Below, one piece after another: positions 2,031 to 10,868 of a stretch of DNA of 14,666 nt. The notes under the pieces were generated by a model that did not search any database, was not told where the DNA came from, and saw only the letters and a program-made list of their open reading frames with translations. The DNA is from an uncultured archaeon (lineage in GTDB: Archaea; Hadarchaeota; Hadarchaeia; Hadarchaeales; WYZ-LMO6), in the NCBI GenBank assembly GCA_938074535.1, contig CALJER010000044.1, positions 1 to 14,666 on the forward strand, given 5' to 3'. Numbering within the stretch: the first letter of the stretch is position 1; each line of letters begins with the position of its first letter. Made by a program: the position numbers and the translations under genes.

Positions 2031-2042
2031 AACCCTTTATCC
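2029..2042 (+). promoter_or_regulatory. Putative BRE/TATA promoter of the C/D box sRNA
   Basis: GTAACC-CTTTATCC, with the TTTAT core at 2036-2040 about 21-25 nt upstream of the predicted sRNA 5' end at 2061. Confidence 0.45.
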
Positions 2043-2060: not shown

Positions 2061-2127
2061 TTTGCCGATGATGTCACGGTAAGCCTGAGCCCGGCGATGA
2101 TTTGAATGATGGGCGGACTGAGGCAAA
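2061..2127 (+). ncRNA. Box C/D 2'-O-methylation guide sRNA; D guide predicted to target 16S rRNA C1402 (E. coli numbering)
   Basis: Terminal stem TTTGCC (2061-2066)/GGCAAA (2122-2127). Box C ATGATGT 2068-2074, D' CTGA 2085-2088, C' ATGATTT 2097-2103, D CTGA 2118-2121. D guide TGATGGGCGG is complementary to conserved 16S CCGCCCGUCA (one G-U pair). Confidence 0.85.
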
Positions 2128-2151: not shown

Positions 2152-3759
2152 TCAACCCAGGATGGTTTCCATGAGTTCTTTCTCCGCCTCGTCCACCGTG
2201 GGTATGCCGGTGACCCTGGAGGCCCTCTCCGTGAGGGCCACTAGATCCCCCCTGTCTATCAGCTCCAGCTTCCACTTGCGCGTCCCCGCCATCAGCTGCC
2301 GCAGGCCCACCCCTATCCGCTCCACCTGGTAGGTGTACAGGCCCAGGGCTCCTGGCGGTATCCGCTGGAATCTCTCTCCGTACTTCTGCTTCAGCTCCGG
2401 GGCACTCACGAAGAACTTGGAGGGCTCCTTCCCGTACTGTTCGGAGAACTTGGCCGGAAGCTTGCCCTTCTCAGCCAGCTCCGCGAAGTAGGAGGCCTTC
2501 ATCACCGCCGTCAGGGGGGATCGGGCCATGGTTATAGCCTTCACCAGGGGTCCATCTCCAAAGTTGCTCATGGCAATGGCCTTGAAGACCTGGGTCTCGT
2601 TTATGAAGCCCCCCGCCATGCTGAGGTCGGGCACGTACCTTCCCTTCCTCTTCAGGATCTGGGCGCACTTCAGAACCTGTGCCTCCAGGTACACCGTGGG
2701 GGTGCTCATCTCGTTCATCATGGGCACGGGGCTCATCCCCGTACCCCCTCCCGCCCCGTCGAAGGTTATGTAATCCACCTTCGCCTCCGAGGCCACCTTC
2801 ATGGTCCAGGCCACGTCCGCAGGGCGGTAGGCACCCGTCTTCAGACTGACCTTCTTGGCCCCCTGTTCCCTGAGCCATTCCACGTCCTCCACGAACTCCC
2901 TTTCCGCGGGCATGCCCACCCTGCTGTGGCGCTCGAAAGTCCTGAAGTAGCCCTGCCTGAAGGCCTCCTGCACCGCCGGGTCCTCTGGATCGGGGACCAC
3001 CACATAGCCCCTTCTCTTGAGGGCCAGGGCCCTCTCCAGGCTGTCGAGCCTGACCTCCCCTCCGATGGCCTTGGCGCCCTGCCCCCACTTCCTCTCTATC
3101 ACGTCCACCTCCAGCTTGGAGATGGCGTAAACATCCACCCCGAACCTCTGGTCCTCCACGTTGGTCTGGACGGCCACTCCCCCGTGTTTCCCGTCCCAGA
3201 ACTCCCTGAACTTCTTCACCCTGTACTCTAAATCGGGCGAGGAAACCACCTTCCCCCCCGTGAAGGTGGCCTCGGGGTCCATGCCGCACACGTTCTCCCC
3301 TATCACCAGGATGACCCCTGCAAGCGCCGAGCCCACCGCCAGACCGTCCCAGTTGTTCCTGGCCACCGCAGTGGAACCGAAGGCCCCGTTGACCAGGGGA
3401 ACGCGCAGGGGTATTCCCCCCAGCCTGGTGGAGATGTCCACGTTGGGGAAAACCGCCCTGTCTGGATCGGCCTCTATTCCTTCGGCACCCCTGAGGCTGG
3501 CCAGGATGTTGAAGTGGGACCAGTCGAGACCGTAGTCCTTGAGGGAAGCCGCCGTGCTCCTCCCGAAGTACTCCGGCATCGGGTAGAGGACCTCCCTCCC
3601 CCTGAAGGCGGAGAGGCCCACCTCACACAGCACAGGACACTCCCTGATACAGAGGGGACACATCCCGCTGGTGGGGCTCACGTCTCTGACCCTGGAAGCG
3701 GTACCCGTGGTGGACTGCGCGTTCAGATATGCCGAGTTCCTCTGCACCCTTTCGGTCAT
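2152..3759 (-). CDS. FMN-binding glutamate synthase family protein (stand-alone GltB FMN domain-like)
   Basis: Motifs ERKWGQGAKAIGG, SLKTGAY, TFDGAGGGTGMSP and MAGGF, plus N-terminal CPLCIRECPVLC. ATG 3759 is preceded by GGAGGGAGG and is preferred over GTG 3777. Confidence 0.85.
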   Translation of the reverse strand: MTERVQRNSAYLNAQSTTGTASRVRDVSPTSGMCPLCIRECPVLCEVGLSAFRGREVLYPMPEYFGRSTAASLKDYGLDWSHFNILASLRGAEGIEADPDRAVFPNVDISTRLGGIPLRVPLVNGAFGSTAVARNNWDGLAVGSALAGVILVIGENVCGMDPEATFTGGKVVSSPDLEYRVKKFREFWDGKHGGVAVQTNVEDQRFGVDVYAISKLEVDVIERKWGQGAKAIGGEVRLDSLERALALKRRGYVVVPDPEDPAVQEAFRQGYFRTFERHSRVGMPAEREFVEDVEWLREQGAKKVSLKTGAYRPADVAWTMKVASEAKVDYITFDGAGGGTGMSPVPMMNEMSTPTVYLEAQVLKCAQILKRKGRYVPDLSMAGGFINETQVFKAIAMSNFGDGPLVKAITMARSPLTAVMKASYFAELAEKGKLPAKFSEQYGKEPSKFFVSAPELKQKYGERFQRIPPGALGLYTYQVERIGVGLRQLMAGTRKWKLELIDRGDLVALTERASRVTGIPTVDEAEKELMETILG

Positions 3760-3782
3760 CCTCCCTCCTTCCCGCACTCTCC

Positions 3783-3864: not shown

Positions 3865-4659
3865 ATGAAGGACTTCCCCGCCTCCCGCCCTTCCCTCAGG
3901 GACCCCTCGAGAACCTGTGAAGAGATCCTCTCCTTCATAAGGGAAAGGGTGGGAGAGGCCAAGGCGAAGGGGGTGGTGCTGGGGCTCAGCGGGGGCCTGG
4001 ATTCCTCCACCGCCGCCTACCTCTGCGCGAAGGCCCTGGGGCGCCGCAGGGTCCTGGGCCTCCTCATGCCCGACGAAGCCACCTCTCCCCAGGACCTCGA
4101 AGACGCCAGGCTCGTCGCCGGGAAGCTGAAGATCCCCCACAGGTTCTTCGACCTCACCCCCCTCTGCGAGCATATCTTCCCGCTTTTCAGGGGAAACCGC
4201 AACAGCAGGGGGAACGTGAAGGCCCGCCTGCGCATGGTCCTGCTCTACTACGCCGCCAACTCCAGGGACCTGCTGGTGGTGGGCACGAGCGACAGGAGCG
4301 AGATCCTCATGGGTTACTTCACCAAGTACGGAGACGGAGGGGCCGACCTGCTCCCCCTGGGGGGGCTCTTCAAAACCCAGGTGAGGGAGCTGGCGAGGTA
4401 CCTGGGGGTTCCCGACCGCATCTTGAGCAAGCCCAGCACCCCAGGGTTCTGGCCGGGACAGACGGCGGAGGGCGAGCTGGGGGTGAGCTACGAACTCCTG
4501 GACTCCATCCTGCACCTGAGAGTCGATCTGGGCAAGGATCTCCCCTCCATCCAGAGGGAGCTGGGGGTGAGCAGGGGACTCGTCGAGCGCCTCCTGAGGA
4601 GGATGGAGGGAACGGAGCACAAGAGGAGGCCTCCCCCCTCCCCTACTCCTCCAGCCTGA
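3865..4659 (+). CDS. nadE: NH3-dependent NAD+ synthetase
   Basis: GLSGGLDSS PP-loop, GNVKARLRM, GYFTKYGDG, LFKTQV, GQTAEGELG and EHKR. No glutaminase domain. Confidence 0.95.
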   Translation: MKDFPASRPSLRDPSRTCEEILSFIRERVGEAKAKGVVLGLSGGLDSSTAAYLCAKALGRRRVLGLLMPDEATSPQDLEDARLVAGKLKIPHRFFDLTPLCEHIFPLFRGNRNSRGNVKARLRMVLLYYAANSRDLLVVGTSDRSEILMGYFTKYGDGGADLLPLGGLFKTQVRELARYLGVPDRILSKPSTPGFWPGQTAEGELGVSYELLDSILHLRVDLGKDLPSIQRELGVSRGLVERLLRRMEGTEHKRRPPPSPTPPA

Positions 4660-5173
4660 GCCTGAGCTTCGCCATGTCCTCCTTTATTTCCGCCCTGTGG
4701 CCCATGCCCTCCAGCGTGTCCAGCAGCAGCTCCTTCACGAACCTCTTGCTGGACGGAACGTTCAGAACCAGCGTGAACTCCTTCTCCGAAGCCCGGCTCA
4801 TCTTGAAGAAGTTGCAGGCCTCTATCCTCCTCAGGTACTCGACGGGGGAAAGGGAGGAAAGCTGCTCCGCGTGGGAGAGGGAAACCTCCCTGCACTCCCT
4901 GTAGAACCTCTCCTTCTCCCCGCTCCTCTCCAAGTACTTGAAGAAGAGCAGCCAGTGATCCACGTCCAGGATCACGTGCTCACCCCCCTGGAGGAGATCC
5001 AGCCAGATCTTGACCTTCTCCGGATCCCTCAGCAGCCTCCCGTAAGCGGAGAAAAACTTCAGGGCGAATCTTATCAGGGCACTGTAGGTCATCCCGCTCT
5101 CCTGACTCAACCTCCTCAGGATCTCCTCCGCCTCCCTGTCCAGGGACACGCTGAGACGTATGGGTGCGGGCAG
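4643..5173 (-). CDS. Ribbon-helix-helix (CopG-like) transcriptional regulator with uncharacterised C-terminal domain; probable CTG start at 5173
   Basis: Upstream extension gives (M)PAPIRLSVSLDREAEEILRRLSQESGMTYSALIRFALKFF, matching the RHH strand-helix-helix pattern. The ORF-track GTG 5149 would cut the beta-strand. In-frame TAA at 5183-5185 bounds the ORF. Confidence 0.7.
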   Translation of the reverse strand: MPAPIRLSVSLDREAEEILRRLSQESGMTYSALIRFALKFFSAYGRLLRDPEKVKIWLDLLQGGEHVILDVDHWLLFFKYLERSGEKERFYRECREVSLSHAEQLSSLSPVEYLRRIEACNFFKMSRASEKEFTLVLNVPSSKRFVKELLLDTLEGMGHRAEIKEDMAKLRLRLEE

Positions 5174-10116: not shown

Positions 10117-10868
10117 TCCAGTTCGATCCTCGGGGCCAGGATGAAGCTGAGGCTGCCCCTTCCACCCGCTATGCGCAGGTCCAGCTTCACGGGCAGGTCC
10201 TCCCCCAGGTGGACGGTGACCACGTCCTTGGGGTCGGCGGCCTTCAGCATGTCGGAGAGGTATTTCACGTTGAACATGGAAGAGCAGGAGCGCTCAAGCT
10301 TCAGCTTGGGCATGGCGGCGCTCCCCTTCTCCAGCCTCAGCTCCGCCGATTTCCCATCACCCTCCGCATGCATGAAGAATCCCTCCTCCGTTACCCTGAA
10401 GCGAACGTTCTCCCCCACCGTCTCGGAGTCCCTCAGGCCGTCCTGCAGCACCTCGGCCATCACCTCCACGAGGGCTGTGAACTGAAGCCTGGGTTCGGGG
10501 AGCTCGCTCTCCCTCAGGTCGAGGAGGGGGAGGCTGAACTTCCTGCTGGAGGTACCCCTGAAGGTGACCAGAAGCCTGTTCTTCTCCTCGTCGTGCTCCA
10601 TCACCAGGGCATCGTCGCTCTTGGCCCTGGACAGGACCCTGTTCAGCTCCGTGAGGGAGAGGCCCAGCCCCAGGGGCTTGGAGACCCTGTACTCCTCGAA
10701 GGCTGACGACGGAAGCCTGAAGTCCACCAGAGCCACGTGGGAGGGATCCATGGCCCTCATGCTCACCCCCTCCTGGGTAAACCTGAAGTGGGCCTCCTCC
10801 AGCAGGTTGACTATGGCCCCCATGCATGTCTTCCAGACCTTGGTGTCCGACATCCTGACGGTCAGCAT
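10113..10868 (-). CDS. pcn: DNA polymerase sliding clamp PCNA
   Basis: MRAMDPSHVALVD, SMFNVKYL, LGEDLPVKL and C-terminal FILAPRIE. SD GGTGA lies 4 nt before the ATG. Confidence 0.96.
   Translation of the reverse strand: MLTVRMSDTKVWKTCMGAIVNLLEEAHFRFTQEGVSMRAMDPSHVALVDFRLPSSAFEEYRVSKPLGLGLSLTELNRVLSRAKSDDALVMEHDEEKNRLLVTFRGTSSRKFSLPLLDLRESELPEPRLQFTALVEVMAEVLQDGLRDSETVGENVRFRVTEEGFFMHAEGDGKSAELRLEKGSAAMPKLKLERSCSSMFNVKYLSDMLKAADPKDVVTVHLGEDLPVKLDLRIAGGRGSLSFILAPRIELE

Follow-up and report, generated by a model that had tools for sequence, protein, structure and literature searches.

The window analysed in this study is a stretch of 14,666 nucleotides carried by contig C44 of the genome of an uncultured member of the Hadarchaeota (assembly of 1.2 Mb, 63% G+C, 93.6% complete). 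Two minus-strand genes of this window, one Hsp20-like (1354-1983) and one whose product has a glutamate-synthase domain (2152-3777), are separated by a gap of 168 nt. In this gap lies 2061-2127 (plus strand), which a sequence-only reading had proposed to be an unannotated box C/D sRNA predicted to direct 2'-O-methylation of C1402 in the decoding centre of 16S rRNA (rRNA positions are given in E. coli numbering unless a model or alignment is named). The locus raises two questions, namely whether this element is a genuine RNA gene and which ribosomal nucleotide its guide addresses.

Boxes C, D', C' and D in this order within a 6-bp terminal stem, a short hairpin between D' and C' and a TATA-like element upstream had all been described from the sequence, and each of them is present. 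The stem strands TTTGCC (2061-2066) and GGCAAA (2122-2127), delimited from the window sequence and from covariation, enclose the four boxes. Box C (ATGATGT, or AUGAUGU in RNA; 2068-2074) agrees with the consensus RUGAUGA at six of seven bases and is near-invariant in an alignment of 34 copies of the sRNA (alignment A1). It is followed by a D' spacer of 10 nt (CACGGTAAGC, that is CACGGUAAGC; 2075-2084), an orphan or degenerate guide in the host family, and by box D' (CTGA, or CUGA; 2085-2088), which is at least 90% conserved in A1. The D'-C' loop GCCCGGCG (2089-2096) is closed by two base pairs, G2089-C2095 and C2090-G2094, and leads into a degenerate box C' (ATGATTT, or AUGAUUU; 2097-2103), in which A1 shows conservation of GAUGA and variation at the last two bases. 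The D spacer of 14 nt (2104-2117) ends in TGATGGGCGGA and contains the guide core TGATGGGCGG, that is UGAUGGGCGG (2107-2116), which spans positions 11 to 2 when numbered back from box D; box D itself (CTGA, or CUGA; 2118-2121) is invariant in A1. Archaeal C/D guide spacers usually measure about 12 nt. The D' and D spacers measure 10 and 14 nt here, a departure from this norm that we count against a role of the sRNA in C1402 methylation; they measure 10-12 and 13-15 nt in relatives, and constraint on the D spacer is confined to positions 2-11 from box D.

The putative TATA-like element TTTAT (2036-2040, plus strand) lies about 25 nt 5' of the stem strand TTTGCC, and YTTAT(C) or TTTATA occurs at a comparable upstream distance in most of the relatives' flanks inspected. 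TTTAT may be the promoter element, and the sRNA would be independently transcribed from 2061-2127 on the plus strand. A second TATA-like A/T run (2014-2025) may serve the divergent Hsp20-like gene. On the minus strand, a terminator-like hairpin with a T-rich tail (2141-2162) follows the stop of the gene at 2152-3777; the A-run that immediately follows the sRNA stem on its 3' side is complementary to the T-run of this hairpin.

Similarity searches located the element in relatives from several families of the host order. A1 shows little or no variation in the boxes and the D guide, and the flanks and the loop are variable. Among the 34 sequences, the terminal stem is maintained by compensatory changes: alignment pair 5-71 is AU in 15, GC in 13, CG in four, GU in one and UA in one, and pair 7-69 is CG in 18 and GC in 16, with none unpaired at either. 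Both sides change in six of the seven stem pairs, 81% of the stem cells are paired versus 25-47% in slid controls, and the covariation score of the stem was reached by none of 500 shuffles. The short helix in the D'-C' loop is likewise paired in 89.7% of its alignment cells (pair 33-42: GC 33, AU 1; pair 34-41: CG 23, AU 3, UA 1, other 7).

A covariance model built from the homologs (R1), whose match in the window spans 2060-2129, identified copies with conserved boxes in 61 of 66 Hadarchaeota genomes, including all 26 of high quality, and in 12 of 13 genomes of the Undinarchaeales-containing class (E <= 2e-8); these counts overstate the number of evolutionary events because kin are not independent, and both R1 and the pattern used for guide extraction favour copies that retain a GGGCG core. 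The five Hadarchaeota genomes without an R1 match are 67-83% complete. The host genome also encodes fibrillarin and Nop5, whose genes are adjacent on contig C36, and two L7Ae-family proteins, all above Pfam cut-offs. Together, the conserved boxes, the covarying stem and the presence of these three protein components confirm, on comparative grounds, that 2061-2127 (plus strand) is a genuine box C/D sRNA gene. That it had gone unannotated is borne out as well: a scan against Rfam returned no match for the sRNA at gathering scores, and at E values up to 10 it gave weak generic C/D matches only, the best being sR1 at 20 bits versus the 45 required and in a shifted register.

It could be argued that the boxes and stem arose by chance or are promoter and terminator signals of the flanking minus-strand genes, as the location in a narrow intergenic gap and the terminator-like hairpin abutting the 3' stem strand would suggest. 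Such signals would hardly account for an element kept with its boxes in two distant groups, for the compensatory changes in its stem, or for a guide core that is invariant between variable flanks and a variable loop, and we regard this explanation as very unlikely.

Several observations concern the form and distribution of the gene. The pattern TGATG-N9-15-CTGA-N22-34-CTGA occurs twice in the window versus 0.06 expected; the second, loose C...D'...D match (10301-10359, minus strand) lies in a G+C-rich, coding-looking region, lacks an evident C' box and is probably due to chance. One relative (G034) carries tandem paralogues about 120 nt apart (contig C96:4417-4488 and 4611-4682), which differ in their terminal stems and D' spacers and have the same D guide, and another (G031) has a weak second copy nearby. 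The sRNA of the deepest Hadarchaeota families (loci L250-L253; genomes G012, G009, G015 and G046) is shorter, at 63-66 nt, with box C AUGAUGA, poorly recognisable D' and C' boxes and the guide end GGGCGA(C/U/A). A public MAG named 'Candidatus Hadarchaeota archaeon' contains a copy that does not differ from the one in a relative of the same order. Folded without protein, the segment 2058-2130 (plus strand) adopts a different fold with two hairpins (-26.5 kcal/mol, z = -4.3), in which CGGUAA of the D' spacer of the host genus pairs with the 5' stem strand and GCCC of the loop pairs with GGGC of the guide. The D' spacer and loop segments are unlike these in other families, so we rejected this fold as the functional structure and treat it as incidental.

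The sRNA would form a terminal C/D kink-turn, with the 6-bp stem closing it, and an internal C'/D' motif, and it would bind L7Ae, Nop5 and fibrillarin. The 10 nt upstream of box D are predicted to pair with 16S positions 1399-1408, and fibrillarin would then 2'-O-methylate decoding-centre nucleotide C1402, which faces position 5 of the guide. The 10-bp duplex with one G-U pair that had been proposed for 2107-2116, with the N+5 rule pointing to C1402, holds on the host's own 16S rRNA: the gene, on contig C3, reads ACACACCGCCCGTCAAGCC, and its segment CCGCCCGUCA forms nine Watson-Crick pairs and one G-U pair with guide positions 2-11. Numbering of this site follows the E. coli row of the supplementary alignment of Dennis et al. 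(2015) and its text, alignment A1395 corresponding to E. coli A1408. Random 12-mers found a 10-bp site with at most one G-U pair in the 7-kb rRNA precursor in about 3% of 200,000 trials. The 16S site reads ACCGCCCGTCA in all 19 Hadarchaeota relatives in which it is assembled.

Among 62 guide copies from 61 genomes, no variation occurs at positions 3-7, 9 and 11. Position 8 is U in 60 and C in two, position 10 is G in 60 and A in two, position 2 is G in 46 and A in 16, and positions 1 and 12 accept any base. Methyl transfer requires a Watson-Crick pair at N+5 together with box D (PMC4644070); here guide position 5 forms a Watson-Crick G-C pair with the equivalent of C1402, and box D is a perfect CUGA. 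As in the sR11 of Ignicoccus hospitalis (Iho), the sequence GAUGGGCGG stands one base upstream of a D-type box and places N+5 on C1402.

The only other GGGCG-type guide detected in the host genome is a coding-looking stretch on contig C47 without C/D features. In bacteria, C1402 receives its 2'-O-methyl group from RsmI, a stand-alone protein that works without a guide RNA. Together with RsmH this enzyme modifies the nucleotide that the Hadarchaeota element would address with an RNA. The check for an RsmI homolog that the sequence-only reading had proposed was negative: neither RsmI (TIGR00096) nor RsmH (PF01795) gave a match in this 93.6% complete genome. Taken together, the pairing and conservation of the D guide suggest that it most likely directs a 2'-O-methyl group onto 16S C1402, a cytosine that is universally conserved.

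One feature of the 16S duplex is unexpected in that the U at position 8, which forms the G-U pair with G1405, is kept in 60 of 62 Hadarchaeota copies and in 12 of 12 copies from the Undinarchaeales class, although C would pair better. In addition, the 16S rRNA of one uncultured archaeon detected with a pattern scan (G045; loci L186, L192 and L023) has A at position 1405 (CCGCCCAUCA), where G is near-universal. This 16S site pairs with the guide in Watson-Crick fashion throughout. The 23S helix 92 of the same organism is quite different (UUAACUCAUUAA), and its candidate sRNA has no clear C'/D half.

The sequence-only reading overlooked a site in 23S rRNA that matches the guide equally well. The guide core pairs with UCGCCCAUCA on the 3' strand of the A-loop helix 92, with N+5 at C2558 (E. 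coli numbers being alignment columns minus 274), and the same D guide may act on this site in addition to 16S. On the host's own helix 92, UUCGCCCAUCAA, it forms 11 pairs at positions 1-11 (10 Watson-Crick and one G-U), and by pair count it fits 23S as well as or better than 16S; the predicted duplex energies are -20.3 kcal/mol at 16S and -18.6 kcal/mol at helix 92. A rRNA pairing of at least 9 bp with a Watson-Crick N+5 pair is thus found at both sites. A third 23S match, ACCGCCCAUCCA (position 3141 of the gene), was discarded, as it is not conserved even within the genus: its 9-nt complement CCGCCCAUC is kept in three of the 17 genomes in which the fetched loci cover the region, namely the host, one relative from its genus and a third genome, and another relative from the genus is without it.

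Within the phylum, the comparison of the two sites leans towards 23S. Helix 92 is variable across Hadarchaeota (UUCGCCC[A/G]U[C/U]AA), and it nevertheless keeps ten contiguous pairs with the guide (positions 2-11, with zero to three G-U pairs) in all 32 same-genome comparisons, whereas pairing with 16S is lost at position 2 in 16 of 62 copies and at position 10 in two of 62. None of the guide variants weakens the fit to 23S, which is kept or made better, and those at positions 2 and 10 each cost one 16S pair. Position 8 is C in two copies, both in genomes whose 23S partner is G; position 10 is A in two copies, and in the one with a known 23S of its own the partner is U.

These data raise the alternative that helix 92 (C2558) is the only selected target in Hadarchaeota and that the match to 16S is a by-product of the likeness between CCGCCCGUCA and UCGCCCAUCA, the sRNA being a double guide whose D' guide acts on U2504. 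U2504, the D' target of relatives, lies about 54 nt upstream of C2558. Such spacing is common for double guides: of those for rRNA in Pyrobaculum, 72% address sites within 100 nt of each other (PMC6009581). In the same direction, sR64 of Methanopyrus kandleri (Mka) has been assigned to the same 23S position (alignment C2832, equivalent to E. coli C2558), and the 23S of the host family has C opposite guide position 10, which turns a G-U into a G-C pair. A guide selected for helix 92 alone would, on the other hand, be expected to carry A rather than G at position 10, as the 23S partner is U in 26 of the 32 genomes whose 23S is known, and G is kept in 60 of 62 copies. Three G-U pairs weaken the case further in five of the 32 genomes, and in the host family the D' partner guide has been lost.

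Evidence from outside Hadarchaeota points to 16S. All 12 copies from the Undinarchaeales class retain the guide core GAUGGGCGG, and in this class the 16S site is intact in nine of nine genomes and helix 92 reads UUCACCGGUUAA in eight of eight genomes, mismatching guide positions 4 and 7; in one genome of this class, the 16S site is the only complement of the guide in the rRNA stretches examined. Position 2 changes from G to A in one of the 12 copies of this class, where 23S is not a target, so that it says little in favour of a U partner; we accordingly set aside the purine-only variation at position 2 as an argument for 23S. Guide position 11 is C in Ignicoccus sR11, in Sulfolobus sR122 and in a Sulfolobales MAG, which in these organisms matches their own 16S G1408 and mismatches the A of 23S. 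A pattern scan of contigs listed at least 120 matches, mostly chance bacterial ones with six archaeal among the matches listed; the pattern is too loose for a distribution to be read from it and, as it forced U at position 8, gives no information on the choice between U and C beyond the two groups covered by R1.

On the strength of the Undinarchaeales-class and Thermoproteota evidence, and of the separate sRNA (sR64) that Methanopyrus has for the 23S position, we take 16S C1402 as the likely conserved target. Selection on helix 92 alone is, in our judgement, improbable.

A further reading, which is a subset of C1402 methylation rather than a competitor of it, is that a single guide of 10 nt acts on two centres of the ribosome. 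Three positions distinguish the decoding-centre strand of 16S (C, G, C) from the A-loop stem strand of 23S (U, A/G, U/C), and at these the guide has G, U and G, the only bases that pair with both. It would follow that in Hadarchaeota the sRNA methylates both C1402 and C2558, a possibility that we consider rather unlikely. Such dual targeting could explain the conserved G-U pair at position 8 in Hadarchaeota, though not in the Undinarchaeales class. If it is real, the sRNA would couple the maturation of the active sites of both subunits, the same RNA would in most relatives also address U2504 of the peptidyl-transferase centre through its D' guide, and the guide would be ancient and common to Hadarchaeota, Undinarchaeales, Methanopyrus and Thermoproteota.

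For methylation of 16S C1402, the reading that we prefer, the nearest known counterparts are Iho sR11, Mka sR114 and Sulfolobus acidocaldarius (Sac) sR122, in each of which GAUGGGCGG is separated by one base from a D-type box; a near copy occurs in Mma sR106 (PMC4644070, supplementary file 1). All four guides carry the entry 'NP' (no prediction) in Dennis et al. (PMC4644070). The core of sR11, sR114 and sR122 can pair with 16S 1399-1407/8, including a G-U pair at G1405 as here. In these three sRNAs it is the D' guide, whereas in Hadarchaeota it is the D guide, and the second guide is a different one, listed in the numbering of Dennis et al. for 16S A1223 in Iho sR11 and for 16S U894 in Mka sR114. 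The remainder of the three sRNAs is unalignable with the Hadarchaeota sRNA, so only the guide is shown to be common to them. Using RiboMeth-seq, Seistrup et al. (2017, PMC5389701) found Cm1402 in Nanoarchaeum equitans, with no sRNA candidate for it. In I. hospitalis they measured a level below 50% and named Iho sR11 as an sRNA that could direct this modification. We count the sub-stoichiometric methylation in I. hospitalis against our preferred reading.

The low level in I. hospitalis would also fit an sRNP that binds 16S, 23S helix 92 or both as an assembly chaperone or placeholder, with little or no methylation. Pyrobaculum (Pca) sR25 and Thermoproteus tenax sR35 provide a precedent for such binding: their guides pair with the same 16S segment (C1389*, equivalent to E. 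coli C1402) and have a conserved N+5 mismatch, so that binding without methylation is expected (PMC6009581). The conserved internal G-U pair, which weakens the duplex, is consistent with this, as is the chaperone role that has been proposed for archaeal sRNAs (PMC4644070). The Hadarchaeota guide differs from sR25 and sR35 precisely at N+5, where it forms a Watson-Crick G-C pair upstream of a perfect CUGA box, and Cm1402 is present in N. equitans (PMC5389701). We therefore see a slim chance that the sRNA acts by binding alone, and retain methylation of C1402 as the probable function.

The sequence-only reading had also called the sRNA the archaeal counterpart of U43/snR70. The target position supports this comparison, since yeast Cm1639 (snR70) is equivalent to E. 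coli Cm1402 and human Cm1703 (PMC2794176), and SNORD43 is reported together with Cm1703; yeast snR70 and human U43 (SNORD43) are box C/D guides that address this same position. Neither SNORD43 nor snR70 matched the sRNA in the Rfam scan at E values up to 10, so that 'counterpart' stands for the same target position and not for homology. By target position, snR70/U43 is a functional analogue of the proposed Hadarchaeota guide.

The degeneration of the D' guide in the host family was overlooked in the sequence-only reading. No mismatch-free rRNA or tRNA site was found for the D' guide in the host genome, and the six genomes of the host family show four variants of the D' spacer, one of them with a TTGA D' box. 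In most other families, the D' spacer reads CAC(C)GACAUCGU and is complementary to 23S CGAUGUCG(GU) over 7-10 bp, with N+5 at U2504 in the peptidyl-transferase centre. The Undinarchaeales class keeps a D' guide in 10 of 12 copies (ACCGACAUCGA(U/G), with 10 Watson-Crick pairs to 23S), for which N+5 is A2503. The D' guide has decayed in the host family and is probably idle in the host.

Separate sRNAs with guide sequences of their own are assigned to the corresponding positions in other archaea: I. hospitalis sR204 to 23S U2778 (E. coli U2504), the site of the relatives' D' guide, and Mka sR64 to C2558, where the D guide has its second possible site. The Ignicoccus genes for sR204 and sR11 (with GAUGGGCGGA) are neighbours on opposite strands, at coordinates 62476 and 62791 (PMC4644070). 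The two guides that belong to one RNA in Hadarchaeota and Undinarchaeales are hence found there in two adjacent sRNA genes.

The rRNA genes of the host are overlong (contig C3:18321-25526; loci L001 and L022). The 16S measures 2356 nt versus a model of 1478 positions, and the 23S spans 4653 nt versus a model of 2987 positions; the extra lengths resemble introns. The 3' end of one 23S insertion directly abuts CGAUGUCGG in the peptidyl-transferase centre, the site of the relatives' D' guide, and this insertion is apparently common to the host and at least six relatives.

The guide core and the proposal of Cm1402 are already known from the work on sR11, which the sequence-only reading had missed, and the Hadarchaeota sRNA is not new in kind. 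Its interest lies in the target and in the extent of its conservation. C1402 is among the few rRNA positions reported to be 2'-O-methylated in bacteria (E. coli), eukaryotes (yeast and human) and archaea (N. equitans) (PMC2794176, PMC5389701), and an archaeal guide for it had been suggested for one species only, with none found in N. equitans (PMC5389701). Our comparison offers a likely target for guides with 'no prediction' in Methanopyrus, Sulfolobus and Ignicoccus, so the question of a C1402 guide could be addressed in tractable species such as S. acidocaldarius. Model R1 can be used to annotate this sRNA in uncultured archaea, and its possible dual specificity for 16S and 23S rRNA is flagged here. 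For Hadarchaeota, the sRNA represents a candidate C1402 guide that is conserved throughout nearly the entire phylum and in a DPANN class.
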